64,000 nucleotides of DNA from an uncultured Syntrophobacterales bacterium (GTDB taxonomy: Bacteria > Desulfobacterota > Syntrophia > Syntrophales > UBA5619): assembly GCA_903928915.1 (NCBI GenBank), contig CAIYSL010000018.1, forward strand, positions 90,075-154,074, given 5' to 3'. The notes beneath the pieces are model-generated. The model was not told the DNA's origin. It saw only the letters and a list, made by a program, of their open reading frames with translations, and ran no database searches. Positions 21,514-37,258 of the stretch are shown here, one piece after another. Every line of letters starts with the position of its first letter. The stretch's first letter is position 1. The position numbers were made by a program, and so were the translations under genes.

Positions 21514-22065
21514 ATGGAACTGTACCAGGCTATCGAAAAACGCAGGACGATCCGGAAATTCAAAGGCGCCGCCACGGAGGCGCAGTTGAAGAGGATCATC
21601 GCCGCCGGCACCCAGGCGCCCTCGGGCATGAACAAGCAGAACTGGGAATTCGTCCTGGTCGACGACCCGGCGACCATCGAAGCGATCGGCCAGATCAAGT
21701 ACGTGATGAACCGGGGCAAGGCGGCGGGTGAAGAGGTGCCTGAGGCGCAGGAGAAGGGGGCGCTCAGGCAGAAGGACTCCTTCAAGAACGCCACGCTCCT
21801 GGTCGTGTACTGCAACAAGGAGCTCGCCGATTCGGTCGGCCCCTGGCTGTGCATCGAAAACATCTCCCTCGCTGCGGTCGCCGAGGGGCTGGGATCGCGG
21901 ATCGCCCGGCTGGGCGGCGATGCGGCGGCCCAGGTGAACAAGCTGCTGAACGCACCCGCGGCGATGGAGCTGGTGGCTGCCCTCTCCATCGGCATCCCCG
22001 ACGAAGATGCCGCACCGCGCACCCTGCGGCCCGAAGGAAGCTGGCTGCACCAAAACCGGTTCTAG
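21514..22065 (+). CDS. Nitroreductase family protein
   Basis: ATG 21514 after AAGGAGGA. MELYQAIEKRRTIRKFKG...APSGMNKQNWEFVLV. Confidence 0.85.
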   Translation: MELYQAIEKRRTIRKFKGAATEAQLKRIIAAGTQAPSGMNKQNWEFVLVDDPATIEAIGQIKYVMNRGKAAGEEVPEAQEKGALRQKDSFKNATLLVVYCNKELADSVGPWLCIENISLAAVAEGLGSRIARLGGDAAAQVNKLLNAPAAMELVAALSIGIPDEDAAPRTLRPEGSWLHQNRF

Positions 22066-22172
22066 GGTTTTCCCGCCCCCGCCGGGCGGCTTCCCGGCCG
22101 GCGGGGGCGACTGCTGCGGGCGCGGCAACGCGGACGAGCCGTTGCGACGCCTCTGCGGCGAAAGGAGCAGGG

Positions 22173-22538
22173 ATGAAGGTATTCAAGGTCGGCGATTTTC
22201 TGCGGATGCAAAACCCCACCCCCGGCACGACCTACCGCCAGGACACCCTCACCGGGGAGATCGGCGCCAAGGAGCTGGGGGGCCTCTTCGGAATCATGGT
22301 CGCGGGGGCGCAGGGCGAGTACCACTACCACAACCAGCGCGAATCACTGCTGTTCATCATCTCCGGCGCGGCCACGGAACTGGTCGACGGGGTGGAACAC
22401 CCGATCACAGCCGGCGATATCCTCTTCATCCGGCCGGGGGAGAAGCACACCATCGTGAACAGAACGGACCAGGACCTCCGGTTTCTCGAGTTCTTCACCC
22501 ATCCTCCGGTGGCCGCGGACAAGATCGCGGTGACCTAG
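22173..22538 (+). CDS. Cupin domain protein
   Basis: ATG 22173 after AAAGGAG. GEYHYHNQRESLLFIISG...GDILFIRPGEKHTIVN carries the two cupin motifs. Confidence 0.75.
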   Translation: MKVFKVGDFLRMQNPTPGTTYRQDTLTGEIGAKELGGLFGIMVAGAQGEYHYHNQRESLLFIISGAATELVDGVEHPITAGDILFIRPGEKHTIVNRTDQDLRFLEFFTHPPVAADKIAVT

Positions 22539-22803
22539 CACCGGGGCGGTGCAGGCGGCTGCGGGCAAACGGGCGTTGCCGTCGGCCCCTCCCATGGTCG
22601 CTCTTTCCCGCAGCCCGCAAAAGAGCGTCGCCGGGCAACGAAAAGACCCCTGGACCGGCATCCGGGGCTGCGGGCGACCCAACAGTCGGGCTGAAAACCA
22701 TCCGGTCTTTTGAAAGAATAATCATTGGTTCGCCGATTCTCCACGGCCCGGTGGCAACTGTACCCGGGATCGTCTCTGTGCTCCTGCGTCTGTTAATAAT
22801 GTG

Positions 22804-22832
22804 TTGACAGGCTGCTATCAGAGTGCTAGAAG
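22804..22832 (+). promoter_or_regulatory. Weak sigma70-type promoter candidate for the GntR gene
   Basis: TTGACA (22804-22809), 17-nt spacer, TAGAAG (22827-22832). Confidence 0.35.
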
Positions 22833-22868
22833 CATGGCAAGCGTAGCGTTCATCCCACAACGTCAGGT

Positions 22869-23516
22869 GTGACTATGCTTCCCGCTGAAGCCCATCGCGT
22901 CTTCGAAGAAATCAAGGGTGACATCATAAACGGCACCTATTGCCAGGGTGAACCGCTGGCGGAAATCCCGCTGTCGAAAAAATTCGGGGTCAACCGGGCA
23001 CGCATCCACCAGGTGCTCGCCGAGCTGGAGAAGATGGCGCTCGTGGAGAAGGTCCCCGCAAAGGGCGCCTTCGTCAAGGTGATCACCTCGAAGGACCTCC
23101 AGGAGATCTTCGAATTGAAGGAGGCGATCGACGGGATGGCGACGCGGCTGGCGGCGCGCAGAAGGCACGACGGCGAGCTTGCCCGGATGATCGCCCTGTT
23201 TGAAGAGGCCAGACGATCCTTCAGTGAAACCGATTTCGAGCGGAAGATCCAGATCGGCTACCAGCTCCACCAATTCATCCTGAAGAGCTGCGACAACGCC
23301 CGGATCGTCAATACGATCAAGCCGCTGGAGTTTCAGATCATGCGGATCTGGAAGACGGGCATCCACTTCCCCGAGCGAATCAACAAGGCCTTCACCGAGC
23401 ACATCGATATCTTGATGGCGATCAAGGAGAAAGACGAGGAGCGGGCGGAATCGCGGATGAAGTTCCATATGTCGAGCGCCTTCAAGGATTACATATCGCT
23501 CCTGACCAGGCGTTAG
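22869..23516 (+). CDS. GntR family transcriptional regulator (FadR/FCD subfamily)
   Basis: Winged-helix region LSKKFGVNRARIHQVLAELEKMALVEKVPAKGAFV plus a C-terminal all-helical FCD-like domain. The start is GTG 22869 or ATG 22875. Confidence 0.85.
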   Translation: MTMLPAEAHRVFEEIKGDIINGTYCQGEPLAEIPLSKKFGVNRARIHQVLAELEKMALVEKVPAKGAFVKVITSKDLQEIFELKEAIDGMATRLAARRRHDGELARMIALFEEARRSFSETDFERKIQIGYQLHQFILKSCDNARIVNTIKPLEFQIMRIWKTGIHFPERINKAFTEHIDILMAIKEKDEERAESRMKFHMSSAFKDYISLLTRR

Positions 23517-23607
23517 GAAGCGGGCCGGCCCGAGGGCCGGCGAGGCAACGAGGGGCTGTTATGCCGGGCCCGCAAGAAGACAACTACGGTCACAGAAAGG
23601 ACAGGCA

Positions 23608-24822
23608 ATGGATCAAGGACGAGGATTAATCGGGGTTGATTGGGAAGAACGGGTCAATTTCGACCGCATGCGGAAGGACCGGATCGCCAAGGTGCGTAAG
23701 GCGGTCAAGGATTCGGGAGTCGACCTCCTGCTCTGCTTCCGGCTGGAGAACATCCGGTATTCCATGGCGCTTCGGACCCACGACTGGCCCCAGGCCCATT
23801 TCGGGATGGCGGCCCTGGCGGTCACCTCGCGCAGCCAGGAGTACCTGTACACCCTGGATTACTACCACGTGAAGGCGCGTTGCCCCTGGCTGTGGAGCTC
23901 CCTGGCTGAAGACAAGAAGGGGCTGCCCGTGACGTCGCGGGGGCTGGAGACGGAGACGGGCTCCATGGTCTGGGCGAAAGAGGTGCTGGAGCGCTGCAAG
24001 AAGCTGGACATCAAGGTGAAGCGGGTGGCCGTGGACATGTACTCCCCGGGGCTCGCCTGGGCCCTGCCGAAGGTCTTCACCGAGGCGGAGTTCGTCAACG
24101 GCCAGGACGTGATGATCAAGGCCCGGTCGATCAAGACCCCCGACGAGATCCTCTGCCTCAAGATCGCCTACGACATGACCATGTCGGGGATGTACGAGGC
24201 CCGGGAATTCCTCCGGCCCGGGGTGAAGGAGTGCGAGGTGCTGTCCGTAGCCTTCAAGCGGTTCTACGACCTGGGCGGCGAATGGACCCAGTGCGCCAAC
24301 ATCGTCTGTTCGGGCCCCTACACCGCCCCCTACCGGCGGTTTACCTCGGACAGGATCATCGCCGACGGCGACCCGGTGATCATCGACATCGGCAGCCGGT
24401 TCAACGGCTACTGGGGCGACTACACCCGGACGTGGATCTGCGGCGACAAGGCCCCGTCGAAGGAATTGATCAAGCTGCACCAGCGGGCCTACGAGGGGCT
24501 GAAACGGGCGCAGAAGGCGATCAAGCCGGGCGCCACCACCGAAGAGGTGGCGCTGGCCTGCGGAGAGGAGCAGATCCTGAACAGGAGCCTCGGCCACGGG
24601 ATCGGCGTGGGCGCCAACGACGTGCCGTTCATCGGCATCTACCCCGGCGTCACCGGCAAGGACGCCCGCAGGCTCGAGGTGGGGATGGTCTTTTCGATCG
24701 AACCCTACTGCGGCAAGCCCGGGGTCGGCGGGATCCGGCTGGAGGACAACTTCGTCGTAACCGAAGACGGGTGTGAATGCATCAGCGAAGGGACCCCCTT
24801 TGAGCCGCGACTGATGAAGTAG
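23608..24822 (+). CDS. M24 family metallohydrolase (creatinase / Xaa-Pro peptidase fold)
   Basis: N-terminal creatinase_N-like region plus pita-bread domain. GDPVIIDIGSRFNGYWGDYTRTW...HGIGV...GMVFSIEP...GGIRLEDNFVVTEDG. Confidence 0.85.
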   Translation: MDQGRGLIGVDWEERVNFDRMRKDRIAKVRKAVKDSGVDLLLCFRLENIRYSMALRTHDWPQAHFGMAALAVTSRSQEYLYTLDYYHVKARCPWLWSSLAEDKKGLPVTSRGLETETGSMVWAKEVLERCKKLDIKVKRVAVDMYSPGLAWALPKVFTEAEFVNGQDVMIKARSIKTPDEILCLKIAYDMTMSGMYEAREFLRPGVKECEVLSVAFKRFYDLGGEWTQCANIVCSGPYTAPYRRFTSDRIIADGDPVIIDIGSRFNGYWGDYTRTWICGDKAPSKELIKLHQRAYEGLKRAQKAIKPGATTEEVALACGEEQILNRSLGHGIGVGANDVPFIGIYPGVTGKDARRLEVGMVFSIEPYCGKPGVGGIRLEDNFVVTEDGCECISEGTPFEPRLMK

Positions 24823-24830
24823 CGGCTCAG

Positions 24831-24868
24831 GCAGCTCTCCGCAGGACTCCTGCGGAGAGCTGCATTTC
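24831..24868 (+). terminator. Stem-loop terminator candidate
   Basis: gcagctctccgcag / ctgcggagagctgc 14-bp stem (24831-24863) followed by ATTT. Lies 9 nt after the M24 stop codon. Confidence 0.45.
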
Positions 24869-24995
24869 GCCATAACGATCACTGCCGGCTCTGCACGCAA
24901 CGGGATCGGCGCAGACCGCAAATCTCGAAAACGCCGGCCGGATCGGATTTCCCGGGTGTCCGGCGACCGCACAGGGACACGCGTGAGGAGGGCGC

Positions 24996-25967
24996 ATGCT
25001 CAAGGTAAAGTCCACCTCCCTCGATTTCGGCAAGCTGGATCGCGCCCCGCTCGATCTGCTCGCGGCCAACGGGTGCGAGTTCGAATCGGTGCCGGTCGAT
25101 GCCAATTCGGAGGAGCAGGCAATCGCGGTGGTGAAGGACGCCGATGTCCTGGTGGTGGGGCTGCAGCGGATCACCGCGCCGGTGCTGGCCGCCGCCGGCC
25201 GGCTGAAGGTGATCGGCAGGTGCGGGGCCGGGCTCGACAACATCGACCTCAAGGCCGCCGGGGAGCGGGGGATCCCGGTGGTGTACACGCCGGGCGCCAA
25301 TGCCCAGGCCGTGGCGGACCTGACGCTGGGGCTGATGCTTGCCCTTTGCCGCAAGATCACCCAGGCCGACCGGATGACCCGCGAGAACCAGTGGAAGCGG
25401 ATCATGGGCAACGACCTGTGGAGCAAGACCCTCGGCATCTGCGGGCTGGGTCAGATCGGTGCCAACGTGGCCCGGCGGGCCAAGGGGTTCGATATGGAGG
25501 TCGTCGCCTACGACGTCGTCCAGAACGTCGCGCTGGCCCGCGAACTGGGTATTCAGTTCGTGAGCAAGGCCGACATCCTCGCCCGGGCGGATTTTCTCAC
25601 CCTCCATCTGCCGCTGACCCCCGAGACGCAGGGATTCATCGCCGACGGGGAACTCAAGGCCATGAAGAAGACCGCCTTCCTGGTCAACACCTCCCGCGGA
25701 GGGATTGTCGACGAGGCCGCCCTGCATCGTGCCCTGCGGGAGGGCGAGATCGCCGGCGCGGCCCTCGACGTGTTCGAACCGGAGCCACCGGGAAAAACCC
25801 CGCTCGTGGAGCTGGACAATTTCATCGGCTCCCCCCACGTCGGCGGGATAACCGTCGAGGCGCTCGGGCGGATCGGAATGACGGTCGCCCGGGATGTGGT
25901 CGCGGTGCTGAAGGGACAGGCGCCCGAGTTCCTGGCGAACGGGCAGTGGCTGGTCTCGAAGAAGTGA
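24996..25967 (+). CDS. D-isomer-specific 2-hydroxyacid dehydrogenase (phosphoglycerate dehydrogenase-like)
   Basis: GRCGAGLDNIDL..., NAD motif GICGLGQIGANVARRAKGFDMEVVAYD, NTSRGGIVDE, SPHVGG. Confidence 0.9.
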   Translation: MLKVKSTSLDFGKLDRAPLDLLAANGCEFESVPVDANSEEQAIAVVKDADVLVVGLQRITAPVLAAAGRLKVIGRCGAGLDNIDLKAAGERGIPVVYTPGANAQAVADLTLGLMLALCRKITQADRMTRENQWKRIMGNDLWSKTLGICGLGQIGANVARRAKGFDMEVVAYDVVQNVALARELGIQFVSKADILARADFLTLHLPLTPETQGFIADGELKAMKKTAFLVNTSRGGIVDEAALHRALREGEIAGAALDVFEPEPPGKTPLVELDNFIGSPHVGGITVEALGRIGMTVARDVVAVLKGQAPEFLANGQWLVSKK

Positions 25968-26043
25968 GGCGCCGGCAGGGCGCCCTGTTGCCGCGGCAGA
26001 GGGAGTTTCTTTCAACCGGTCGCTCGTCAGGCGGAGGTGACGC

Positions 26044-26949
26044 ATGCAGGCACTAGATCCGAAATCGACACCGATAGGGATTGTGGGGCTCGGGTTCATG
26101 GGGTCGGCAATTTCCGCCCATATCGTGGCGGCGGGATATGACCTGAGCGGGTTCGACATCGACCGGCAGCGCCTCGAGATCCTTCTCGCCAAGGGCGGCA
26201 GGGCCGCCTCGTCCGCGCGGGAGGTTGCCGAGCAGGCGGCGGTCGTGCTGACGTCGCTCCCCAGCCTGGCCGCCTTCGAGGACGTGATCCGGGGGCCCGC
26301 GGGGATCCTCTCCTCCCGGCGGGAGGGGCTGATCGTGATGGAGTGCAGCACCCTCGCCGTGGAGGACAAGAAGCGCGCCCACGACGATCTCGCCGCTGCC
26401 GGGATGTCGATGCTCGACTGCCCGATCAGCGGCGGGATCCGGGCGAGCGAGAAGGACCTCGTCCTGTACGGCAGCGGCGAGCAGGCAACCTATGACCGGT
26501 GCCTTCCCCTGATCGAGAGCTTCTCCCGGGCGAACTACTACCTCGGCGAATTCGGCAACGGGATGAAGATGAAGGTCCTGGCCAACCTGCTGGTGGCCGT
26601 CCACAACGTCTCCGCGGCGGAGGTGATGGTGCTGGGGATGAAGGCCGGCCTGGATGCGGAGCTGATCTATCAGGTGATGAACAACTCCTCCGGCCGTTCG
26701 CGTATGCTCGAAGTCCGCGGGCTGCGCATGGTCAAGGACGATTACGACAACCCCACCATGAAGGTGAAGATCTTCCAGAAGGACCTGAAGATCATCGAAA
26801 GTTTCGCCGCGAGCCTGAATTGCCCTACCCCGCTGTTTACGAGCACCAATCAGGTCTATCTCAGCGCCCTGGCCATGGGGCTCGGCGACAAGGATACCGC
26901 GTCGGTGTGCGCCGTTTTGGAGCAGTGGGCGCAGCTGAAGCGGAAGTAG
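26044..26949 (+). CDS. NAD(P)-dependent beta-hydroxyacid dehydrogenase (3-hydroxyisobutyrate dehydrogenase family)
   Basis: IGIVGLGFMGSAISAHI..., LDCPISGG..., LGEFGNGMKMKVLANLL. ATG 26044 follows GGAGGTGA. Confidence 0.85.
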   Translation: MQALDPKSTPIGIVGLGFMGSAISAHIVAAGYDLSGFDIDRQRLEILLAKGGRAASSAREVAEQAAVVLTSLPSLAAFEDVIRGPAGILSSRREGLIVMECSTLAVEDKKRAHDDLAAAGMSMLDCPISGGIRASEKDLVLYGSGEQATYDRCLPLIESFSRANYYLGEFGNGMKMKVLANLLVAVHNVSAAEVMVLGMKAGLDAELIYQVMNNSSGRSRMLEVRGLRMVKDDYDNPTMKVKIFQKDLKIIESFAASLNCPTPLFTSTNQVYLSALAMGLGDKDTASVCAVLEQWAQLKRK

Positions 26950-27074
26950 CTGCGCTTCGCGCAGGGCAGAGCTGCCCAGAATGCCGCACCGGCGAGGGAG
27001 CTTGGCAAACATCCGTCGCTGCGGTCAACGCGGGAACCACCCGGGAAAAGGCTACAACACCAAAGGAGGAACCA

Positions 27075-28619
27075 ATGAACGGAAGCAAGTCGATCAAAGG
27101 CAAATGGATGCGGATCCTCGCTGCCGTGGCGGTTGCGGGGATACTGCTCGTACCGGCCGGACCCGGCTGGGCGGCGCCCCAGGGGGTGCTCAAGCAGGTG
27201 ATCCACTGGTCGTTCTCGGCCGACTGGTTCGACCCGTCGATGGGGAGTTTTCCGATGCCGGCCTACCACCCGCTGTACCTGTTCCATGACGCCCTGCTCA
27301 AGCCCATGGCCGGGGGGCTGTTCACCCCGTCCTTGGCGGAATCCTGGACGGTCAGCGAAGATTCCCGCACGTACGAGTTCAAGATCCGCAAGGGGGTCAA
27401 ATTTCACAACGGCGACGACCTGACTGCCGACGACGTGGTGTTCAGCATCAAGCGGTACAAGGGGGCAAACTCCAAAGTGATCCAGGGTAAACTCGACAAG
27501 GTGGAGGCCCTGAACCCGAACCTGGTCCGCGTTCATTTCAAGGAGCCGTTCCCCGATTTCCTCGAGTACATGCTGCCCGGCGCCACGACGATTGCCTGGA
27601 TCGTACCGAAGAAGTACATCGAGAAGGTGGGGGATGCGGAATTCAAGAAGCGCCCCGTCGGCGCCGGTCCGTACAAGTACGTGGAGTACGCCCCCGGGGT
27701 AAAGCTGGTGGCCGAGGCCTTCGAAGGGTACTGGCGGAAGGTCCCGAACATCAAGCGGATGGAGTTCACCAACGTGCCCGAGCCCGCGACCCGTCTGGCC
27801 ATGGTCAAGCGGGGCGAGGCCGACATCGCCACGCTGATGCAGGGGGTCTATTTTGAAGACCTGAAAAAGACTCCGTCCTTGCGCATGCTGGCCCCCTTGA
27901 GTCCGGTCAACTGGATGGTCTACATCGGGGCCCAGTGGGAGCCCAAGTCGCCCTGGGCCGACATCCGGGTGCGCAAGGCCGCCAGCCTCGCTATCGACCG
28001 GCAGACCCTGGCGGACATCCACATGCCCGGCTGCGGTCCCGTGGGCACGCTGGCCATGTCGAACGACCCGACGGCGGTCTCGTTCCCGGCGGATCCCTAC
28101 GACCCGGCGGCCGCGAAGAAACTCCTGGCCGAGGCCGGCTACCCCAACGGGTTCCCGGGAGGGAAATTCTACCCCTACGAGGGGGGGTACTGGCCCTACG
28201 GCGAGCAGGTAGCCACCTACTGGAAGGCCGTGGGCATCACCGTGGAAACGGTCCTCTTGGACAAGCCGGCGCTCCTGGCCCAGCGGGCAGGCGGGCGGAT
28301 GAAGGATGCCCTCTGGATCGACAACCCCACGGCCCCCTCGGTGGGGTTGCGCCTGAGCACCCTGTTCAGCGGCGGTTCCTACCGGAACTATCCCGACATC
28401 GCGGAGCTCTGGAACAAGTACCAGAAGGAGCCCTCGCAGAAGGTGCGCAAGACCCTGAGCGAGAAGATCCAGACCCTCGTTCACGAGCGGAGGATGTGGC
28501 TGCCCTTGACCGACACCAACTCGCCGGCGGCGATCGGACCGAAGGTGAAGGGGAACCCCTACAAGATCCAGCCGATGATCTGGTATACGGCCCCCTTCGA
28601 AGACATTGAGTTGAACTAG
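27075..28619 (+). CDS. ABC-type substrate-binding protein, family 5 (peptide/nickel/opine type), orphan
   Basis: ATG 27075 after AAAGGAGGA. Signal peptide. LAESWTVSEDSRTYEFKIRKGVKFHNGDDLTADDVVFS is typical of SBP_bac_5. No cognate permease or ATPase genes lie nearby. Confidence 0.85.
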   Translation: MNGSKSIKGKWMRILAAVAVAGILLVPAGPGWAAPQGVLKQVIHWSFSADWFDPSMGSFPMPAYHPLYLFHDALLKPMAGGLFTPSLAESWTVSEDSRTYEFKIRKGVKFHNGDDLTADDVVFSIKRYKGANSKVIQGKLDKVEALNPNLVRVHFKEPFPDFLEYMLPGATTIAWIVPKKYIEKVGDAEFKKRPVGAGPYKYVEYAPGVKLVAEAFEGYWRKVPNIKRMEFTNVPEPATRLAMVKRGEADIATLMQGVYFEDLKKTPSLRMLAPLSPVNWMVYIGAQWEPKSPWADIRVRKAASLAIDRQTLADIHMPGCGPVGTLAMSNDPTAVSFPADPYDPAAAKKLLAEAGYPNGFPGGKFYPYEGGYWPYGEQVATYWKAVGITVETVLLDKPALLAQRAGGRMKDALWIDNPTAPSVGLRLSTLFSGGSYRNYPDIAELWNKYQKEPSQKVRKTLSEKIQTLVHERRMWLPLTDTNSPAAIGPKVKGNPYKIQPMIWYTAPFEDIELN

Positions 28620-28628
28620 GCGCGCCAG

Positions 28629-28658
28629 GGTGCGGCAGACCCTGGGGTCTGCCGCACC
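28629..28658. other. GC-rich 13-bp stem-loop without U-tract
   Basis: ggtgcggcagacc ctgg ggtctgccgcacc. Lies 10 nt after the binding-protein stop codon. Confidence 0.35.
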
Positions 28659-28685
28659 GGCGGGCCATTATCCCCGGTACGTTCC

Positions 28686-29915
28686 ATGAATTACCCGAAA
28701 TGGATCTCGGTCCGGCAGAACCTCGACCGGAAGCGGGTCGGCGATCCCTACGGCGCCGCCGCCGGCCAGCTCTCCCTGCTGCCCGCGGGGCTCGTTCGCC
28801 GGGGTGCGCGAATCGCCGTCACCGCCGGCAGCCGCTGCATCGCCAACGTCGTCCCGATCACCCGGGCCGTGATCGATTACATCGCGGCGCAGGGGGGGGA
28901 GCCCTTCCTGGTCCCCGCCATGGGGAGCCACGGCGGGGCGACCAGCCGGGGACAGACGCAGGTCCTGGCCGAATTCGGCCTGACCGCCGAGGCGCTGGGT
29001 GTTCCGCTGCGCTCCTCGATGGAGGTCGTGCAGCTCGGCGTGGTCGAGAACATCCCGGTCTACATCGACCGGTATGCCCATGAGGCCGACGGGATCGTCA
29101 TCGTCAACCGGGTCAAGGCCCACCAGGTATTCAAGGGGGCGATCCAGAGCGGCCTGAACAAGATGCTCGTCATCGGGCTGGGCAAGCAGAAGGGGGCCGA
29201 TGCCGTCCACGCCTCCGGAAGGACCGATGTGCTCGGCCCGCTGGGGGATTTCCTCCGCGCTGCGGCGCCGGTCCTGTTCGGCGTGGCCATCCTGGAGAAT
29301 TCTTACGACGAGACCCGGGACGTGGCGGCGCTCTTGCCCGAGAGCTTCACCGAGTACGACGCGGCCTGGGCAAAGCTGTCCCGTTCGCTCATGCCGAAGA
29401 TCCCGGTCCGGCGGCTGGACCTCGTCGTGGTCGAGCGGATGGGCAAGGACGTGAGCGGCTCGGGGATGGATACGAACGTAATCGGGTTCACCCGGCGCCT
29501 GCTCGCCACCGGACAGACCGCAGTTCCGCTGGCAGTGCTGGCCCTGACGGAGAAGACCGAGGGCAACGCCATGGGGATCGGCCTTGCCGACCTGACCACG
29601 CGGCGGCTGGCGGAGGGGATCGACCGGCAGAAGACCTACACCAACGTCCTGGCCACGGGGATCTATTCCACGGGCCGCATCCCCGTGACGCTCGACGACG
29701 AGCGGGCGATCTTCGACACGGTCATCGGCAAGCTGGACGACCCGGAGCGGGCGCGGATCGTCCGGATCAAAAGCACCCTCGAGCTTGACCGGTTCTGGGC
29801 CACCGAGGCGCTGCGGGAAGAGCTCCGCGGCCAGCCGGAGCTGGAGGTCACCGCCGAGGCGGTGGAGACCCGTTTTGACGAGCAGGGGACCCTGGCCATC
29901 GACGCCGCGGGATGA
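28686..29915 (+). CDS. Uncharacterised protein, possibly lactate-racemase-N-terminal-like (DUF2088-type) domain
   Basis: 409 aa. Motifs IAVTAGSRCIANV, PAMGSHGGAT, MGKDVSGSGMDTNVIG recalled from proteins annotated as lactate racemase domain-containing. The assignment is tentative. Confidence 0.45.
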   Translation: MNYPKWISVRQNLDRKRVGDPYGAAAGQLSLLPAGLVRRGARIAVTAGSRCIANVVPITRAVIDYIAAQGGEPFLVPAMGSHGGATSRGQTQVLAEFGLTAEALGVPLRSSMEVVQLGVVENIPVYIDRYAHEADGIVIVNRVKAHQVFKGAIQSGLNKMLVIGLGKQKGADAVHASGRTDVLGPLGDFLRAAAPVLFGVAILENSYDETRDVAALLPESFTEYDAAWAKLSRSLMPKIPVRRLDLVVVERMGKDVSGSGMDTNVIGFTRRLLATGQTAVPLAVLALTEKTEGNAMGIGLADLTTRRLAEGIDRQKTYTNVLATGIYSTGRIPVTLDDERAIFDTVIGKLDDPERARIVRIKSTLELDRFWATEALREELRGQPELEVTAEAVETRFDEQGTLAIDAAG

Positions 29916-29982
29916 ACCCCCGCCGCGGTGAGCTAATTCCGGCGGGCCGGTAAACGGCGACGCCGCGCTGGAGAGGAGAGCC

Positions 29983-30984
29983 ATGCCAACGATGAAGGCG
30001 ATAGTGATGGAACGGCCCGGCGGGCCCGAGGTGCTGCGGTACGTGGATGTGCCCCTGCCGGAGCCGGCGGCGGGGCAGGTGCTCGTCCGGGCCCATGCCA
30101 TCGGCGTCGGGATGCCCGAGGTGCTGGTCCGGCGCGGCCAGTACGGCTGGATGCCGCCGCTGCCGGCCATCCCGGGGATCGAGATGAGCGGCGTGGTCGA
30201 GAAGCTAGGCGCGGGGGTGGCGACGCTGAAAGTTGGCCAGCCGGTCTTCGTTTCGGCGCGCGAGCTTGCCGTCCGCGGCGGCTGTTACGCCGAGTACATC
30301 GCCGCGGAGGCGGAGGCCCTGTACCCCCTGCCCGCGGGTATCGACCTCGACGCGGCAGCGGCCCTGTCCAACTACCAGGTCGCCTGGCATCTGCTCCACA
30401 GCGCCCCCAACGGGATGCGGTACGAATCCTTTGCGGTGACCGCGGCGGCCGGCGGGGTGGGTTCCGCGCTGGTCCAGTTGGGAAAGCTCGCGGGCAAGCG
30501 GGTGATCGGGATGGTCGACACGGACGAACGGGCCGCCTTCGTCCTTGCACTCGGGGCCGACGGAGCGGTCAACTGCGTCAGCGAGAACGTGACCGACCGC
30601 GTCCGCAGCCTCACGCAGGGCCGCGGGGTGGACATGATTTTCGACTCGCTCGGGGGGCCGCAGTTCGCCGACCAGTTCGAGCGGCTGGCCCCCTTCGGGA
30701 TGGCGGTCTCCTTCGGATTTCTCGCCGGCCCGCCGGGCGGCGACGTGATCGGGGCCATCCGCAGGCGGATCACCGACTGCCTGGGGATGCGGATCTTTTC
30801 GATGCACGCCTTCGACCAGGACCGCGCGAAACGGCGGGGGGTGACGGAAGAGCTGTTTCGCCTGGCAGCGGCGGGGAGGATCAAACCGCCGATCTTTGCG
30901 CGCCTTCCCCTGGCGGAGGCGGGCCGGGCCCAGGCCCTGATCGAGGCGGGCAAGGTGCAGGGCAAAGTCATCCTCAAGCCCTGA
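29983..30984 (+). CDS. Quinone oxidoreductase / zeta-crystallin-type MDR
   Basis: MKAIVMERPGGPEVL...GQVLVRAHAIGV...AAAGGVGSALVQLGK...GKVQGKVILKP. No catalytic-zinc motif. Confidence 0.85.
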   Translation: MPTMKAIVMERPGGPEVLRYVDVPLPEPAAGQVLVRAHAIGVGMPEVLVRRGQYGWMPPLPAIPGIEMSGVVEKLGAGVATLKVGQPVFVSARELAVRGGCYAEYIAAEAEALYPLPAGIDLDAAAALSNYQVAWHLLHSAPNGMRYESFAVTAAAGGVGSALVQLGKLAGKRVIGMVDTDERAAFVLALGADGAVNCVSENVTDRVRSLTQGRGVDMIFDSLGGPQFADQFERLAPFGMAVSFGFLAGPPGGDVIGAIRRRITDCLGMRIFSMHAFDQDRAKRRGVTEELFRLAAAGRIKPPIFARLPLAEAGRAQALIEAGKVQGKVILKP

Positions 30985-31234
30985 TGCGGATCTTTAGAAA
31001 TCGCATCCCTCCGCGCGCTGGATCTTTTCCGACCCTGCGGCTCCTCGCTGCGCTGCAAAGACGAAAGTCGCGCTCGCGCGCTCAGACAATCGTCTTTGCT
31101 CCCGCTCCGCTGCGGAGGCAGGATGCCCCGGAAGATCTCCAATGCGCGCATCCGGGATACGATTCCCAAGGGGCGGAGGTTTTTTCCGGACGGTATCGGA
31201 CGGGTGTTTGTGGGAAAAGAAAGGCGGGAGTGCT

Positions 31235-32218
31235 ATGAAGAAGCTCTGGCTGTCCATCGTCGTTTTCGCGTTTTGTGTGTGCGGGGTCGGTGCGGACTGT
31301 GCGGCCGCCGCGGCGGAGTACCCGAACAAGCCGATCACCTGCATCATTCCCATGGAGCCCGGGGCCGACGGCGACATCAACATGCGCACGATCATGAAGA
31401 AGGCCTCGGAGTTCCTGGGCCAGCCCATCATGGTGGTGAACAAACCCGGCGCCGGCCAGACCATGGGGTACCGGGAGCTGTACAAGGCGAAACCCGACGG
31501 GTACACGATCGGGACCTGTGCCGCCTCGCTGATCATGGCCAAGATGCAGGGGATCTATCCGCAGAACCATCGCGATTTCTCGCTCGTCGCCTTCGGGTAT
31601 CATGCCCTGCCGATCGTCCTGGCCTCGACCGCGTCGAAGCATTCCTTCCAGTCAATCGAGGAGGTCGTCGCCTTCGCCAAGGCAAATCCGAACGCAGTCT
31701 CGATGGCCACGACGTCGGTGGGCGGGGCCTACTGGATCGCCGCCCAGATGGTCGAGATGGCCCTGAAGGTGGATCTCAACCTGATCCCCCAGGAGGGTTC
31801 GGCGGGGTTTGTCGTGACCGCGGTGGCGGGGGGGCACGCGGATTTGGGGGTGACCAGCTTTTCCGCCGCCAAGGGGCAGATCGAGGCGGGAAAGATCCGG
31901 TTCCTCGGGGTGGCCGGCCCCCAGCGCTACCCGGGGAAATTCAATCACGTCAAGACCCTCAAGGAGATGGGGTACGACGCCAGCATGAGTTCTTTCGCGG
32001 CCGTCATGGGGCCGCCCCGGATGCCGAAAGAGATCGTGAACAAGCTCTCCGCGGCGATCGAGAAGGCGATCAAGGACCCCGAAGTGGAAAGGACGATCGT
32101 CAGCCGCAACATGATTCCCGAGTACATGCCCCCCGAGGCGTTCCTGAAATTCTGCAACGAGCAGGAGGTTGGCTACCGGACAGTCCTCGAAAAACTGAAC
32201 ATGCTGAAGACCAAATAG
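31235..32218 (+). CDS. tctC: TctC/Bug family substrate-binding protein (second copy)
   Basis: ATG 31235. Signal peptide, then AEYPNKPITCIIPMEPGADGDINMR...VVNKPGAGQTMGY...KPDGYTIG. Confidence 0.85.
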   Translation: MKKLWLSIVVFAFCVCGVGADCAAAAAEYPNKPITCIIPMEPGADGDINMRTIMKKASEFLGQPIMVVNKPGAGQTMGYRELYKAKPDGYTIGTCAASLIMAKMQGIYPQNHRDFSLVAFGYHALPIVLASTASKHSFQSIEEVVAFAKANPNAVSMATTSVGGAYWIAAQMVEMALKVDLNLIPQEGSAGFVVTAVAGGHADLGVTSFSAAKGQIEAGKIRFLGVAGPQRYPGKFNHVKTLKEMGYDASMSSFAAVMGPPRMPKEIVNKLSAAIEKAIKDPEVERTIVSRNMIPEYMPPEAFLKFCNEQEVGYRTVLEKLNMLKTK

Positions 32219-32336
32219 GGTCCCGGCAACCGCCCGGGAGGTTGGTTCCGCAGGCGCGGCCCTCCGGGCGGGATAGGATCGCAGCAGGAAAACGGGTATC
32301 TTCCATAGCAGGGAGCTTTGCGTGGGGAGGAAGCAG

Positions 32337-32801
32337 ATGCGCAGGGTGGCGGCGTCGACCGGTGCGTGGGTGTGGTGCATTCTGTTGTTCGGCCTCGGTC
32401 TGACGATCATGATCTCGTCGCTGCAGATCGGATTCGGCAGATTCACCAAACCGGGGCCCGGGCTTTTCCCGTTTATCTGCGGGCTGATCCTCGCCGTGCA
32501 GAGCATCGTCCTGTGCCTGGCCGGCGATGCGGGATCCGTCAAGAACGACGAGACCCTGCGCCACCCCGGAGCCGCGCCGAAATTCCTCGCCCTGATGGCG
32601 GTGCTTGTCCTCTGGATCCTGGCGATGCCACTTTTCGGCTGGGTCGCCCTGACCTTTCTGGCGACCCTCGCGATCGCGAAGATCATGGCTGCGGAAGGCT
32701 GGGTGAAGCCGCTCATCCTGGCCGCCGTCAATTGCGGGTTCTCGTACCTGCTGTTCGGATACCTGCTGGCGATCGACTTGCCGACGGGGTTTTGGGGATA
32801 G
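32337..32801 (+). CDS. tctB: TctB family small permease (second copy)
   Basis: GPGLFPFICGL motif, four TM segments. ATG 32337 has GGGGAGG 6 nt upstream. The track ORF starts at GTG 32322. Confidence 0.7.
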   Translation: MRRVAASTGAWVWCILLFGLGLTIMISSLQIGFGRFTKPGPGLFPFICGLILAVQSIVLCLAGDAGSVKNDETLRHPGAAPKFLALMAVLVLWILAMPLFGWVALTFLATLAIAKIMAAEGWVKPLILAAVNCGFSYLLFGYLLAIDLPTGFWG

Positions 32802-32824
32802 GGCCGTACAGGGGGGCAGCCTGC

Positions 32825-34318
32825 ATGGAATTCGACGCCTTGTTCAACGGATTCGCCACCTTCCTGTCGGTCAAGTACATCCTGGCCTGTCTGATCGGGG
32901 CGCTTCTCGGCACGGTCATCGGCGTTCTGCCGGGACTGGGTCCCACGACGACGATGAGTCTGATGCTCCCCTTCACGGCCTCGCTGGACGCCACCTTCGG
33001 CATCATCATGCTGACGGGGATTCTGGTCGGCTCTCAGTACGGGGGATCCACCACCTCGGTCCTCGTCAACATCCCGGGGGAGGCAGCCAGCGTCGTGAGC
33101 TGCCTCGACGGCTACCAGATGGCCAAGAAGGGTCGGGGTGGGGCCGCCCTGGCGCTGGTTGCCGTCGGTTCCTTCATCGCGGGCACGGTGGCGATCGTGG
33201 GCACGCAGGTCTTCGCCCCGCTCCTGGGTTCGGCGGCCCTTTCCTTCGGCCCCCCCGAATTCCTCGCCCTGATGGTCCTCTGCTTCATCCTCTTGTCCAA
33301 CCTCAGCGGCGATTCCCCGGTCAAGGGGTCCTGTATGTTCGCCCTGGGGCTCTGGCTCAGCGCCATCGGCGTCGGTCCCCTGGACGGTGTGGCGCGTTTT
33401 TCCTTCGGGGTCGACGACCTGATGCTCGGGATCGAATTCCTGCCCGTGGCCGTGGGGCTCTTCGGCATCAGCGAGATCCTCATCACCGCCGTTGTCCCCT
33501 ATGTCCCGCCGGTGCTCGAGAAGATCCGCTTCAGGGACCTCTACCCGAACGGGGAGGAGGTGCGACGCTCCGCAGGCCCGGTGGCGCGGGGGTCGATCCT
33601 CGGTTTCTTCGTCGGCCTGGTGCCCGGTCCCGCCACGGTCATCGCCACCTTCGTCTCCTACGCCCTGGAAAAGCGGGTCGCGCGGCGGCCGGAGGAATTC
33701 GGCCGGGGCGCGGTGGAGGGGCTGGTCGGTCCCGAGTCGGCCAACAACAGCGCCTGCGTGGGGTCGATGATCCCGCTGCTCACCCTGGGGATCCCCTTCA
33801 ACGCCCCCTCGGCGGTCCTGCTGGCGGGGCTCCTGATGCATAACGTGGAGCCGGGGCCGCTCTTGTTCCAGAACGCCCCCCAGGTGTTCTGGACCTACAT
33901 CGCGGCGCTCTACATCGGCAACGTGGTCCTGCTCTTCTTGAACCTCCCGCTCGTCGGGATCTTCGCCCGTGTGGCCACGATCCGCCCGGTGATCCTGATG
34001 CCCGTGGTGAGCACCATCTGCCTGCTGGGCGTGTACTGTTCGCGAAACAACCTGTTCGATGTCTGGGTGATGGTGGCCGCCGGGATCGCCGGCGTGTTCT
34101 TCCGGATCTGGCGGTACCCCGTTGCCCCGCTGGTCGTGGGGCTGATCCTGGGCCCCATGGCGGAGAACAGCTTTCGGAAGACGCTGCTGATGTTCCACGG
34201 GAGCCTGATGCCCATGGCGGAGCGGCCGATCGCCGTGGCCATCCTGCTTGCGGCAGCCGCCTTCATCGTGGTGAAGGTCGTCTATTACGCGCTGCGGCGC
34301 AGGCGGGCTGCGGTGTAA
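32825..34318 (+). CDS. tctA: TctA family large permease (second copy)
   Basis: ATG 32825. GVLPGLGPTTTMSLMLP...YGGSTTSVLVNIPGE...GPESANNSA. Clearly paralogous to 7345..8853. Confidence 0.9.
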   Translation: MEFDALFNGFATFLSVKYILACLIGALLGTVIGVLPGLGPTTTMSLMLPFTASLDATFGIIMLTGILVGSQYGGSTTSVLVNIPGEAASVVSCLDGYQMAKKGRGGAALALVAVGSFIAGTVAIVGTQVFAPLLGSAALSFGPPEFLALMVLCFILLSNLSGDSPVKGSCMFALGLWLSAIGVGPLDGVARFSFGVDDLMLGIEFLPVAVGLFGISEILITAVVPYVPPVLEKIRFRDLYPNGEEVRRSAGPVARGSILGFFVGLVPGPATVIATFVSYALEKRVARRPEEFGRGAVEGLVGPESANNSACVGSMIPLLTLGIPFNAPSAVLLAGLLMHNVEPGPLLFQNAPQVFWTYIAALYIGNVVLLFLNLPLVGIFARVATIRPVILMPVVSTICLLGVYCSRNNLFDVWVMVAAGIAGVFFRIWRYPVAPLVVGLILGPMAENSFRKTLLMFHGSLMPMAERPIAVAILLAAAAFIVVKVVYYALRRRRAAV

Positions 34319-34381
34319 AGGACAGGTGTCGTTCGGACGGCCGCGCAGGCCGGGAGAGGACAAGGAAAGGAGGATACGCGT

Positions 34382-35194
34382 ATGCGACTCGTCGACATTC
34401 CGCCCTATCGCGGGGCAGGGTATGAATACAACCCCAAGGAGGGGCCGTGGATCCGGGAGCTGATCGACAACCTGCGGCAGCGGGGACAGCTGGAGGGCGT
34501 CGAGGTGGAGATCGACGAGGGGCACTTCACCGATCATACCTATGAGACCCGCAACGAGGAGGTCTGGGCGAACCTGGCGCCGGGGTTCCTGCGGCGGGTC
34601 CGGGAGTGTTCGGAGAGCGGCCGGTACGACGCCATCATCTGTCACGTCCCGATCGACGAGGGGGCGATCGCCGCGCAATTCGTCTCCAAGATACCCGTGG
34701 CGCTGGCGCTCCACTCGGCTGTCCATTTCGCCTCCTTCATCGGCGATAAGTTCTCGATCATCGACATCAGCGACCAGCACGGCCCCCGGCAGCGGCATCT
34801 CGTCCAGAATTACGGCCTCAACCACAAGCTGATGAGCATCCGGACGATCAACCGCACCTCGACGCAGGTGATGCGGCTGGTGCGGCAGTTCCCTAAAGGG
34901 GAGCGGGCGCGGGCGCCCGAGATCCAGGGGATCGTCCTCGACGCCGTGGCGCAGGGGATCAACGCCATCGAGAAGGAGCGGGTGGACACGCTGATCCTGG
35001 GCTTCCCCGGGCTGGAGCTGCTCCAGCGGGAGATCAGGCAGGGCCTCGACGATAAGGGCTACGACGAAATCCCGATGGTCTGCATGTTCACCGCCTCGGT
35101 GGAGATGGCAAAGGCGATGGTCAACATGGGGCTGAAACAGGCGGCCCGGGCTTACCCGGGGGACGGCCTGCGGGCGAAGCCGGAGTACCGGTAG
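34382..35194 (+). CDS. Asp/Glu/hydantoin racemase-like protein (tentative)
   Basis: 270 aa. YDAIICHVPIDEG and VDTLILGFPGLELL resemble the two half-site motifs of this superfamily, but the second lacks the Cys I recall from two-thiol racemases. Confidence 0.45.
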   Translation: MRLVDIPPYRGAGYEYNPKEGPWIRELIDNLRQRGQLEGVEVEIDEGHFTDHTYETRNEEVWANLAPGFLRRVRECSESGRYDAIICHVPIDEGAIAAQFVSKIPVALALHSAVHFASFIGDKFSIIDISDQHGPRQRHLVQNYGLNHKLMSIRTINRTSTQVMRLVRQFPKGERARAPEIQGIVLDAVAQGINAIEKERVDTLILGFPGLELLQREIRQGLDDKGYDEIPMVCMFTASVEMAKAMVNMGLKQAARAYPGDGLRAKPEYR

Positions 35195-35367
35195 CCGAGG
35201 GCGACATTCACAAATCGATATCAGATATTAAGAGGGCCGTCATGCGGAAGGGCTATGGAGGCGCATTGGGGATGCTGGCGCCGGCTTGTCTGGTCATCGC
35301 CCCGTTTCCTGCGGCGGCGGCCGACAACGTGAGCGTGGGGCCATGCCGCCGGGCATTGGATGAGTAA

Positions 35368-36300
35368 ATGAATATACCGACTCGTACCGGTGAGCCCTCG
35401 ATGCAGAAAATCCCCCGCATATCCTTTCAAAAAAAACAGAATGCGCAACTGGAATTCGAAATTGTTACGCTGCAGAGTCTTTTCCGCCGGCAGACGGAAC
35501 TGAGCTTCGCGCTTGATAAGCCGCACCGGGTCGATTTTTATTCCATTATGTACATCACTCGGGGCACCGGGATCCATGAAATCGACTTTGTCCCCTATGT
35601 GTATAGGGCCGGCAGCGTGCTTTTCATTTCCCAAGGGCAGGTGCACGCCTTTGATGCAGGCCCGGGCCGGGACGGATACCTGCTGCTGTTCACCGAACAT
35701 TTTCTTGCAAAGAACTTGATCCATTCCGACCTGCTCTCTCTTTACCGGCTGTACAATTACCACCTGCACGTACCCATCCTGCAACCGGAGGAGCTCGGCA
35801 GGGAAGATTTCCGCGGCCTCGTTTCCGAGCTCTATCGGGAGTATCGGGCGGAGGAGAATTTTGCCCGGGAGGACCTTCTGCGGCTGTGGCTGAAGCTTCT
35901 GTTGTTGAAGGCGGAGCGAATCAAGCGCACCCTGATCGCGGATCAGAAGAATGCCGGGTGGCCGACCCTGTTCGGAGCCTTCCGCAATCATCTGGAAAGG
36001 AGTTTCAGCGAAACCCGGAACGCAGCAGATTACGCAGGGAGACTGAATATCTCCTATAACCATTTGAATAGAATCTGCAAATCCATGGCCGGCGCCACGG
36101 CCAAGGAGTTCATCGACCGCTTCGTGGTTCTGGAAATCAAACGACGTCTTGCCATGGCCGATATCTCGGTAAAAGAGCTGACGTACGCAATGGGGTTCGA
36201 CGAACCGACCAATCTGGTCAAGTATTTCAAGAAGCACACCGGCCAATCCCCGACCCAGTTCAAACATTCCCTGCAATCCGTACCGCAACGCCCCCAATAG
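35368..36300 (+). CDS. AraC family transcriptional regulator
   Basis: N-terminal cupin-like sensor (HRVDFYSIMYITRGTGIHEIDF) and C-terminal double HTH (AADYAGRLNISYNHLNRICK...VKELTYAMGFDEPTNLVKYFKKHTGQSP). GC is lower than in flanking genes. Confidence 0.85.
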   Translation: MNIPTRTGEPSMQKIPRISFQKKQNAQLEFEIVTLQSLFRRQTELSFALDKPHRVDFYSIMYITRGTGIHEIDFVPYVYRAGSVLFISQGQVHAFDAGPGRDGYLLLFTEHFLAKNLIHSDLLSLYRLYNYHLHVPILQPEELGREDFRGLVSELYREYRAEENFAREDLLRLWLKLLLLKAERIKRTLIADQKNAGWPTLFGAFRNHLERSFSETRNAADYAGRLNISYNHLNRICKSMAGATAKEFIDRFVVLEIKRRLAMADISVKELTYAMGFDEPTNLVKYFKKHTGQSPTQFKHSLQSVPQRPQ

Positions 36301-36412
36301 GGCTCTCATCACCGCCCGGTTCGATATTTACCATAAAGAGGTTGAAGTCAACCTTTCCCCGGTCCGGCCCGGGGGGTATGCTTGCCTCACATTTCAGTCC
36401 AGGAGGCAGGGT

Positions 36413-37258
36413 ATGAAAAAGGGAATGATCATCTTGGTGGCGATTGCTGTATTCGCGGCCTGCGCCACCGCGCAGACAAAACAGGAGGGAGGCATGAAGT
36501 TGACCGAAAAGGAAAAAGCAGTCGCATTGATAACGAGCCTCGAAACAGGCGATCCAGGGCCGGTCCAGTACATCGATCCCAATCGATACATCCAGCACAA
36601 CCTTATGGCAGCCGACGGGCTGGAGGGTTTTGCCGAACTGATGAAGCAGGTGCCGAAGGGAAGCGTCAAGGCCAAGGTCATGCGGGCCTTCCAGGATGGC
36701 GCGTATGTATTCCTGCATACCCAGTATGATTTTTTCGGCCCGAAAATCGGGTTCGACATCTTCCGGTTTGAAAACGGCCTGATCGTGGAGCACTGGGACA
36801 ACCTCCAGCCCCTGGCTCGGGAAACCGCTTCGGGCCGGAGCCAGTTCGACGGTCCGACCCGGGCCGTGGATTTGGAGAAGACCGAGGCCAACAAGCTCCT
36901 GGTGAAGGGGTTCGTTGCCGACGTCCTGCAGGGCGGGGCTCCCGGACGGATCACGGAATATATCGCCCCGGACCACTACCTACAGCACAATCCTGCCGTG
37001 GGGGACGGATTGGCGGCCCTGGGCAAGGCTCTTGAGGATATGGCCAGACAAGGTGTACCTATGACTTACAGGAGGAACCACATGATCCTGGGCGAAGGTG
37101 ATTTTGTGCTGACAGTTTCCGAAGGCCAGTTCCTGGGGAGACCCGCCTGCTTTTACGATCTGTTCCGGGTTGAAAATGGAAGGATCGTAGAACATTGGGA
37201 CACGATAGAAGAAATACCGCCGAGGAAGGACTGGAAGAACGGTAACGGCAAATTTTGA
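36413..37258 (+). CDS. Secreted tandem SnoaL-like / NTF2-fold protein
   Basis: Signal peptide MKKGMIILVAIAVFAACATA. Two internal repeats: YIDPNRYIQHN...DIFRFENGLIVEHWDNLQ and YIAPDHYLQHN...DLFRVENGRIVEHWDTIE. Confidence 0.7.
   Translation: MKKGMIILVAIAVFAACATAQTKQEGGMKLTEKEKAVALITSLETGDPGPVQYIDPNRYIQHNLMAADGLEGFAELMKQVPKGSVKAKVMRAFQDGAYVFLHTQYDFFGPKIGFDIFRFENGLIVEHWDNLQPLARETASGRSQFDGPTRAVDLEKTEANKLLVKGFVADVLQGGAPGRITEYIAPDHYLQHNPAVGDGLAALGKALEDMARQGVPMTYRRNHMILGEGDFVLTVSEGQFLGRPACFYDLFRVENGRIVEHWDTIEEIPPRKDWKNGNGKF

Follow-up and report, generated by a model that had tools for sequence, protein, structure and literature searches.

The DNA analysed here, a stretch of 64,000 nt referred to as the window (contig CAIYSL010000018.1, positions 90,075 to 154,074), comes from an uncultured Syntrophobacterales bacterium, an anaerobe of fresh water, and carries a run of plus-strand genes headed by a regulator. 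This run (nt 22869–35194) is read here, with a probability of roughly 55%, as a GntR-controlled catabolic cluster for a carboxylate, in which a LarA homologue of group 22 (LarAH22) would invert C2 of a 2-hydroxy acid for a D-specific dehydrogenase. Its conserved core comprises genes for a nitroreductase and a cupin, followed by those for the GntR regulator, an M24 metallohydrolase, a D-isomer-specific 2-hydroxyacid dehydrogenase (D-2HADH), a 3-hydroxyisobutyrate-dehydrogenase-like enzyme (3HIBDH-like), a family-5 solute-binding protein (SBP5), LarAH22 and a quinone-oxidoreductase-type enzyme (QOR). The uptake module is interchangeable, being a tripartite tricarboxylate transporter (TTT) in the window and a TRAP or Dpp-type ABC system in relatives.

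The open reading frames (ORFs) and translations of the eleven genes from the regulator onwards match the coordinates given below; all are on the plus strand, and plausible ribosome-binding sites are present. Each belongs by Pfam to the family named in an earlier note on this DNA, which had been made from the sequence alone. That note counted eleven genes after the regulator; ten follow it, and eleven is the number with the regulator included. The same-strand run exists as it was described but is longer, with two more genes on each side (nitroreductase and cupin; AraC and SnoaL-like). The word 'island' finds no support in base composition, as the G+C content of the run (0.62–0.68) is similar to that of the remaining window.

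The LarA homologue

LarAH22 (409 aa; nt 28686–29915) scores 428.8 bits against the NCBIfam model NF052515, 'nickel pincer cofactor-dependent isomerase, group 22' (cut-off 400; positions 2–390 of 392), and is the sole match to this model in the genome. Pfam gave sub-threshold matches only, to Lar_N (18 bits vs 23.3) and to DUF362, and a sequence search of the PDB returned no significant match. An AlphaFold model built from 17 homologues (pLDDT 83, pTM 0.81) was compared with the PDB by Foldseek, and ranks 1–18 were all LarA-family proteins with full-length alignments (E 3.5e-11 to 7.7e-8, TM 0.47–0.57), including malate racemase Mar2, LarA of Isosphaera, Thermoanaerobacterium and Lactiplantibacillus, and single-histidine LarA-like enzymes; after rank 18 the TM values are 0.2 or less.

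The motifs PAMGSHGGAT and GSGMDTNVIG, which had been pointed out previously, are both present in the 409-aa translation. The NCBIfam group 22 is the same as Group 22 of Desguin et al. (2020; Sci Rep 10:18123, PMC7583248), because the same motifs occur in Dataset S2 of that paper: PxMGSHGG, NR[IV]KxH, SGLxKM, GLGKxxGA...H and GKxxSGxGMDxN are common to LarAH22 and the 20 Group 22 sequences given there. All 20 keep R75, H108, H174, K184 and H200 (LarA numbering), and the equivalents of D72 and K298 are replaced (PMC7583248). Among the functional residues of LarA are two catalytic histidines, a lysine that tethers the cofactor, a nickel-binding histidine and Arg75 (PMC7583248). In an alignment of 17 sequences, R50, H82, H146, K159 and H175 of LarAH22 are invariant, and the spacing from H82 through H146 and K159 to H175 is 64/13/16, compared with 66/10/16 in LarA. 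These five residues would be the equivalents of R75, H108, H174, K184 and H200, a mapping made by motifs and spacing and not by a residue-level structural alignment. LarAH22 thus shares with Group 22 the score, the motifs and the equivalents of the five residues. With a profile score above cut-off, the LarA fold and the retention of key residues, its place in the LarA superfamily, which had been tentative, is now firm.

A search of the genome for cofactor genes found larE, larB and larC, contiguous on a contig (C87, nt 38430–40704) other than that of the cluster and all above their cut-offs (LarC 216.6 bits against 90, LarE 315 against 150, LarB 287.4 against 175), so that the nickel-pincer cofactor can be made in this genome. 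Two canonical LarA genes lie elsewhere in it. Compared with LarA and LarB/C/E of Lactiplantibacillus plantarum, LarAH22 has the same two-domain fold and a cofactor site of two histidines plus Lys/His, and the cofactor genes are in the genome; it differs in that no solved LarA is detectable by sequence, Lar_N stays under its cut-off, D72 and K298 are replaced in Group 22, and the cofactor genes lie apart from it. The presence of a partner dehydrogenase that takes one enantiomer agrees with a role in bringing the other isomer into metabolism.

Identity to family members outside the clade of LarAH22 is 48% at most. In a metagenome collection, one homologue (P0002) is 91% identical, and another protein (P0104, 637 aa) joins the last 276 residues of LarAH22 (82%) through a short linker to a complete QOR (92%), being either a natural fusion or an artefact of gene calling or assembly.

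Conservation of the gene neighbourhood

Seventeen loci with LarAH22 proteins 64–90% identical to that of the window form the close set, and five of them hold enough upstream DNA to show M24. On L096, a 19-kb metagenome contig, gntR, M24, D-2HADH, 3HIBDH-like, SBP5, LarAH22 and QOR occur in the order of the window with 73–93% protein identity. The core is also found in part in four further relatives, with L098, L101 and L016 among the partial carriers. M24 is present in four of the five informative loci (L016, L096, L098 and L101; not L014), SBP5 lies directly upstream of LarAH22 in six of the 17, and QOR follows LarAH22 in two (L096, L109). The proposal of a catabolic unit for a carboxylate is borne out by this recurrence of the core order in L096, and of parts of it in other relatives, and by the transporters found linked to it, for the most part of the TTT or TRAP type (one relative has a Dpp-type ABC system). 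The TTT and TRAP families import carboxylates.

In L096 a TRAP system (dctPQM) follows QOR, and then a convergent operon for an activase, a glycyl-radical enzyme and a zinc-dependent alcohol dehydrogenase (Zn-ADH), the genes of which are 71–84% identical to those at nt 38595–43014 of the window. In L098 a DctP gene occupies the slot of the L096 TRAP system. The block of the window from tctC to an alpha/beta hydrolase (nt 31235–38533) thus stands, between conserved flanks, in the position of another carboxylate importer. The eleven genes, once taken as a single unit with the TTT and racemase-like genes, are better described as a conserved core and a swapped-in module. The operon at nt 38595–43014, on the minus strand, scores under every NCBIfam equivalog cut-off.

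The core also extends upstream. The nitroreductase-family gene (nt 21514–22065; PF00881, E 3.1e-18), beyond the limits set for the run in the earlier note, has orthologues 73–78% identical directly upstream of cupin-M24 in L098 and L116, and the small cupin (121 aa; nt 22173–22538; PF07883, E 5.8e-14) shares 68–71% identity with the cupins immediately before M24 in the same two loci. In L116 the order is xanthine-dehydrogenase-family genes (XDH), QOR, short-chain dehydrogenase/reductase (SDR), nitroreductase, cupin, M24, D-2HADH, 3HIBDH-like and SBP5. XDH-family subunits (nt 1–1272, minus strand) and an SDR (nt 12740–13510, plus strand) are also found in the window; they are 72–82% identical to the L116 genes directly beside the M24 core, and lie 10–20 kb from that core in the window. 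As L098 and L116 show, the SDR, nitroreductase and cupin are part of the conserved set.

In the wider group 22 family (82 loci), 13 loci have D-2HADH nearby, and for each of the other window genes the count is between 0 and 4. Clustering the neighbours of 79 distant LarAH22 loci gave iron-dependent alcohol dehydrogenase, SDR, D-2HADH, TAXI-TRAP permeases, 2-oxoacid:ferredoxin oxidoreductase subunits, Ldh_2 and canonical LarA, with no dominant partner (the largest cluster held 8 loci). The neighbours of M24 and of group 22 loci fit a theme of hydroxy and oxo acids. Among 150 other genomes of the same order, LarAH22 matches were found in 15 (identity 43% or less), racemase-fold matches in two (30%) and no M24 match at E 1e-60, and no orthologous clusters for comparison were recovered. 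The cluster is thus an accessory trait of a few lineages among those searched. The names of the closest proteins in the collection point to metagenome-assembled genomes (MAGs) of Syntrophales. A lookup of sequencing runs found no RNA run among the holders, and the two strong holders were lake-water DNA runs of a single study.

The regulator and its upstream element

The regulator (nt 22869–23516) has an N-terminal GntR winged helix (PF00392, E 1e-9; 38.3 bits against 27) and a C-terminal FCD effector domain (PF07729, E 9.8e-21; 74.9 against 24.3) and so falls in the GntR/FCD subfamily; it reached no NCBIfam equivalog cut-off. Its orthologue in L096 is 86% identical and heads the same gene order. 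Upstream of gntR, the window and L096 have diverged except for one well-conserved block of 18 bases, TTGACAGGCTGCTATCAG (nt 22804–22821, plus strand), located 48 bp before the gene. The window has a single copy, against a chance expectation of 0, and a search of 196 loci gave one copy, in L096. The block holds a -35-like hexamer and an imperfect inverted repeat, and is a candidate promoter with operator. A search for inverted repeats around gntR gave two weak pairs, both within the coding region, and no operator. A scan of nt 21200–36500 returned 2 promoter-like and 14 terminator-like sites, compared with 2.2 and 10.9 expected; as these counts are at chance level, the scan is uninformative on operon structure.

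The M24 enzyme and its pairing with D-2HADH

The M24 'pita-bread' metallohydrolase (nt 23608–24822; PF00557, E 1.9e-41) has both domains of a creatinase/prolidase-like protein, with 142.6 bits for PF00557 (cut-off 23) and 31.6 for Creatinase_N, PF01321 (cut-off 22). Five sequences, the most distant at 37% identity, all keep D260, D271, H330, E365 and E379, which follow the Asp-Asp-His-Glu-Glu pattern of the five metal ligands. No NCBIfam equivalog was reached: the scores were 111.9 bits for DddP (cut-off 600), 90 for PepQ (630), 59 and 35.4 for ectoine hydrolase DoeA/EutD (575 and 613) and 55.6 for aminopeptidase P (465). The best solved relatives are proline dipeptidases (E 8e-33), with an equally good full-length match to DddP, a lyase, and the ESM Atlas offered generic 'M24 family' clusters only.

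In a survey of 79 loci with M24 relatives, D-2HADH was counted as near when within about 10 kb. Of the 25 loci with an M24 of at least 40% identity, 12 have it near; among the 54 loci with more distant M24 proteins, 5 do. The pair spans Thermodesulfobacteriota, Acidobacteriota, Actinomycetota, Bacillota and Betaproteobacteria. In the loci scanned, a GntR/FCD regulator, a Zn-ADH or QOR-like enzyme and a transporter are also present; a Solirubrobacterales locus (L133), for example, has GntR/FCD, M24, D-2HADH, SDR, Zn-ADHs and CoA-transferases. M24 and D-2HADH look like the older pair, to which LarAH22 would have been added in this clade.

Other arrangements were also seen. In Acidobacteriota (L128, nt 7856–15106; L132, nt 2686–9083; L139, nt 6823–15055) and a Bacillota MAG (L123, nt 13581–18087) a module of GntR/FCD, an HMGL-like protein of the homocitrate/citramalate-synthase type, M24, MFS, Zn-ADH and D-2HADH recurs, once with a cupin (L139). 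In about 26 of the 79 loci (Binatia, Chloroflexota, Acidobacteriota), M24 homologues of 30–34% identity are preceded, at a distance of about 3 kb, by a 3HIBDH-like gene. In the two of these loci that were scanned (L175, nt 6885–12547; L152, nt 6828–12631), M24 sits downstream of the 3HIBDH-like gene, between E1-beta and E2 of a 2-oxoacid dehydrogenase complex; the full order in L175 is LysR, 3HIBDH, E1-alpha, E1-beta, M24, E2, with M24 embedded in the operon of the complex.

The D-2HADH of the window (nt 24996–25967; 2-Hacid_dh, PF02826, E 1e-61) is of the short phosphoglycerate-dehydrogenase or glyoxylate-reductase type, and its best solved relatives are enzymes of these two kinds. The 3HIBDH-like enzyme, a beta-hydroxyacid dehydrogenase of the 3-hydroxyisobutyrate dehydrogenase family (nt 26044–26949; PF03446 and PF14833, NAD_binding_2/11), is under every NCBIfam equivalog cut-off (L-threonate dehydrogenase 208.9 bits against 350); its best solved relative is 2-(hydroxymethyl)glutarate dehydrogenase 3CKY (E 1.6e-40). 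QOR, a medium-chain dehydrogenase/reductase of the quinone-oxidoreductase (PIG3) type (nt 29983–30984; PF00107, PF08240, PF13602), scores 204.8 bits against TIGR02824 (cut-off 296.8).

The family-5 binding protein

SBP5 (nt 27075–28619; PF00496, E 2.1e-75) is periplasmic, with a signal peptide, and its counterparts next to LarAH22 on the upstream side in relatives are 81–88% identical to it. It had been described as an orphan without an ABC permease or ATPase. This holds within the window, which has no Dpp/Opp-type permease or ATPase, but not for the genome, which has a Dpp-type ABC system elsewhere. The genome contains two family-5 binding proteins and a single DppB-type permease match, the latter on contig C72, where a binding-protein gene is followed by dppB, dppC, dppD and dppF; the C72 binding protein is 68% identical to SBP5. 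In L016 a dppBCDF-type system lies divergently beside M24, and the C72 components are 78–90% identical to these ABC genes flanking the cluster (DppB 86% to the L016 permease). The simplest reading is that SBP5 is a second receptor for the C72 dppBCDF permease.

The surroundings of the C72 system (L195, nt 85–14616) begin with three 2-oxoacid:ferredoxin oxidoreductase subunits, a cupin resembling that upstream of gntR and an FAA-hydrolase-family protein, and continue with an acyl-CoA dehydrogenase, an AMP-forming ligase, the family-5 binder, dppBCDF and an amidohydrolase. This gene set is possibly the downstream half of the same pathway as the cluster.

The TTT module and the racemase-fold protein

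The three TTT genes are adjacent and in C-B-A order: the periplasmic receptor TctC (nt 31235–32218; PF03401, E 5.4e-39; 134.8 bits, cut-off 27), the small membrane subunit TctB (nt 32322–32801; PF07331, E 5.1e-17; 62.8 bits, cut-off 29.1) and the large membrane subunit TctA (nt 32825–34318; PF01970, E 1.9e-143; 478.6 bits, cut-off 28.9). The best solved relatives of TctC are Bug/TctC proteins (best 118.6 bits over full length, E 3e-33). Compared with known systems of this type (TctCBA; Bug proteins), the set has all subunits in the usual order, but its solved relatives are distant. A second complete TTT system is found at nt 7267–10347, in the order tctA-tctB-tctC. Downstream of the module lie AraC (nt 35368–36300) and SnoaL-like (nt 36413–37258) genes, both on the plus strand.

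The Asp/Glu/hydantoin-racemase-fold protein (nt 34382–35194) is confirmed in its family by PF01177 (41.8 bits, cut-off 31), and a profile of six homologues retrieves hydantoin and allantoin racemases (E 5e-14 to 5e-8); no NCBIfam model matched at E 0.01 or better. Both catalytic cysteines of a racemase are missing. At the positions of the two catalytic cysteines of hydantoin racemase 3QVJ (serine in mutant 3QVK) it has V and F, its five homologues carry A/G and S/G/T there, and the subfamily as a whole has no invariant cysteine. Candidates for what replaces the thiols are its invariant HSAxHxAS motif, E197, D202 and K244. Judged by these residues, the protein is probably not a racemase. With both cysteines gone it provides no evidence of a second stereoinversion, and of the stereoinversion proposed earlier the part that stands is the LarA-type enzyme with its score, fold, residues and cofactor genes; the racemase-like protein does not contribute.

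Four relatives of the racemase-fold protein in species-representative genomes are 43–51% identical; TctC directly follows in three of them and M24 is near in two. In an Acidimicrobiaceae MAG (L112), D-2HADH, an FCD regulator, M24 and the racemase-fold gene fall within 5 kb, and in L110 the racemase-fold gene and M24 are 8 kb apart. The gene is thus linked to TTT receptors and to the M24/D-2HADH pair, although it is missing from the closest relatives of the window. Three more paralogues occur in the genome, at C105 (nt 9665–10456, 41%), C69 (nt 1719–2477, 28%) and C53 (nt 47253–47960, 31%); the first is at a contig end and its context is uninformative.

Proposed pathway and alternative explanations

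The pathway suggested by these assignments would begin with entry of the compound by the TTT system, and a conjugated form may enter by SBP5 working with the C72 dppBCDF permease. M24 would cleave a C-N bond (amide, peptide-like or amidine) and release a hydroxy acid. LarAH22, with the nickel-pincer cofactor supplied by LarB/C/E, would invert C2 of the 2-hydroxy acid by hydride transfer, after which D-2HADH would oxidise the inverted acid to a 2-oxo acid. The 3HIBDH-like and QOR-type enzymes would oxidise or reduce a second position, and the FCD domain of the regulator would sense the acid or an intermediate. The Cys-less racemase-fold protein would have arrived with the TTT module and may act on the imported carboxylate, other than by thiol-based racemisation. 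Candidate substrates are C3–C6 hydroxy (di)carboxylates (glycerate, malate, tartrate, 2-hydroxyglutarate, 2,4-dihydroxybutyrate, pantoate, tetronates) and amide conjugates of these acids.

Several observations weigh against this interpretation. The core of L116 has no LarAH22 within 6.5 kb, and the isomerase is therefore dispensable for the core. Conversely, LarAH22 homologues of 65–70% identity occur in a differing context in L014, L104 and L105, which comprises GntR/FCD, an HpaB/AbfD-like protein, LarAH22, CoA-transferase III, a carboxyltransferase and TAXI-TRAP (nt 7295–16820 in L014). The HMGL-like gene of the synthase type in some M24/D-2HADH loci could point to biosynthesis. Gene order among relatives that are 70–90% identical may be explained by descent alone, and the counts are not independent, as some loci share a contig or MAG (L016=L115, L110=L129, L015/L114). 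The promoter and terminator scans are at chance level, and internal promoters could lie in gaps of 173 and 250 bp.

The absence of the TTT and racemase-fold genes from all 17 close loci is a further point against, and raises the question of whether two unrelated units simply adjoin, the core (gntR to QOR) and a separately acquired TTT/racemase-fold module, with AraC, SnoaL and alpha/beta hydrolase, for some other substrate, so that the shared strand would be accidental. The occupation by TRAP of the L096 slot between QOR and the activase/glycyl-radical enzyme/Zn-ADH operon agrees with such an arrangement, as do the 250-bp gap before tctC, a drop in G+C to 0.58–0.62 at 34–38 kb, and the betaproteobacterial origin of the nearest racemase-fold relatives found (about 50% identity). 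Against it, every relative with enough sequence has some transporter in this slot, which fits like-for-like replacement, no terminator-like site lies between QOR and tctC, and racemase-fold homologues co-occur with M24, 2HADH and FCD in other phyla (adjacent in L112, 8 kb away in L110). We consider two unrelated units unlikely.

Less probable still is a cluster for peptide use, in which SBP5 would bind di- or oligopeptides, M24 would be a true Xaa-Pro dipeptidase, and the dehydrogenases and LarAH22 would act on 2-oxo and 2-hydroxy acids from the released amino acids. The relationship of M24 to solved proline dipeptidases and its five retained metal ligands are in keeping with this, and SBP5 resembles peptide, glutathione and dipeptide binders, with a partner ABC system of the Dpp/Opp type that has an oligo_HPY domain. 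M24, however, is far under every peptidase equivalog cut-off and matches the lyase DddP equally well, the cluster is devoid of an aminotransferase or amino-acid dehydrogenase, and where no peptide binder is present the M24 homologues adjoin MFS, TRAP or TTT carboxylate carriers. That SBP5 is instead a NikA-like nickel or metallophore receptor, supplying cofactor nickel for LarAH22 rather than binding the substrate, seems very improbable. Its place directly upstream of LarAH22, in the window and six of the 17 close loci, would suit such a role, and NikA-type models match at 107–111 bits, with NikA structures at E 1e-24 to 1e-26; a nickel transporter is also encoded in the Lactiplantibacillus lar operon. 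Yet these scores are far below the NikA cut-offs (393–600) and lower than the score for a glutathione binder, the two genes are found apart (SBP5 without LarAH22 in L116, LarAH22 without SBP5 in L098), and no such transporter adjoins larEBC on their separate contig.

Relation to known systems and significance

A similar described arrangement outside the LarA family is that of the ectoine and hydroxyectoine catabolic genes (eutABCDE/doeAB), which combine an M24 ectoine hydrolase, EutD/DoeA, with the racemase-fold protein EutA. The likeness lies in an M24 hydrolase for a non-peptide C-N bond together with a racemase-fold protein, a regulator of the GntR superfamily and a carboxylate importer with a periplasmic receptor; the cluster differs in having no EutB/C/E-type genes and a racemase-fold protein that matches no NCBIfam model. 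An ectoine-type reading was rejected on profile scores, since M24, at 59 and 35 bits, falls short of the two cut-offs (575 and 613). Every part of the cluster belongs to a known family, and no description of the combination was found. The earlier statement that it does not correspond to a described pathway agrees with a literature search that found no published description, bioRxiv supplements being outside that search.

Group 22 is listed as of 'unknown function' and is mostly found in sugar-acid contexts (SDR 45%; dihydroxyacid dehydratase, TRAP and LarE 30% each; sugar kinase 25%; PMC7583248), whereas the context in the window is one of M24, D-2HADH, 3HIBDH-like, family-5 binder and QOR. 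Characterised members of the LarA family include malate, 2-hydroxyglutarate and glycerate racemases and gluconate 2-epimerases (PMC7583248; PMC11770544). By the account of the 2024 follow-up, about half of the superfamily is still without an assigned substrate, and 'Group 22' does not appear in the main text of that paper (PMC11770544). A bolder proposal, which we hold to be doubtful, is that the cluster encodes an undescribed anaerobic pathway in which M24 would open or cleave a non-peptide C-N bond to give a 2-hydroxy acid inverted at C2 by a group 22 LarA, which would then have its first physiological substrate. The Cys-less racemase-fold protein, habitually paired with TctC receptors, would on this view be an enzyme of a new kind, using a mechanism other than the two-thiol one on carboxylates imported by TTT.

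Nothing established is overturned by the cluster. It draws attention to an M24/D-2HADH module spread over several phyla and to a Cys-less branch of the racemase fold linked to TctC receptors. For this clade of LarAH22 there is a conserved context, made up of M24, D-2HADH, an FCD regulator with its conserved element upstream, and uptake systems of three exchangeable kinds, from which a short list of ligands and partner enzymes can be drawn up for testing.

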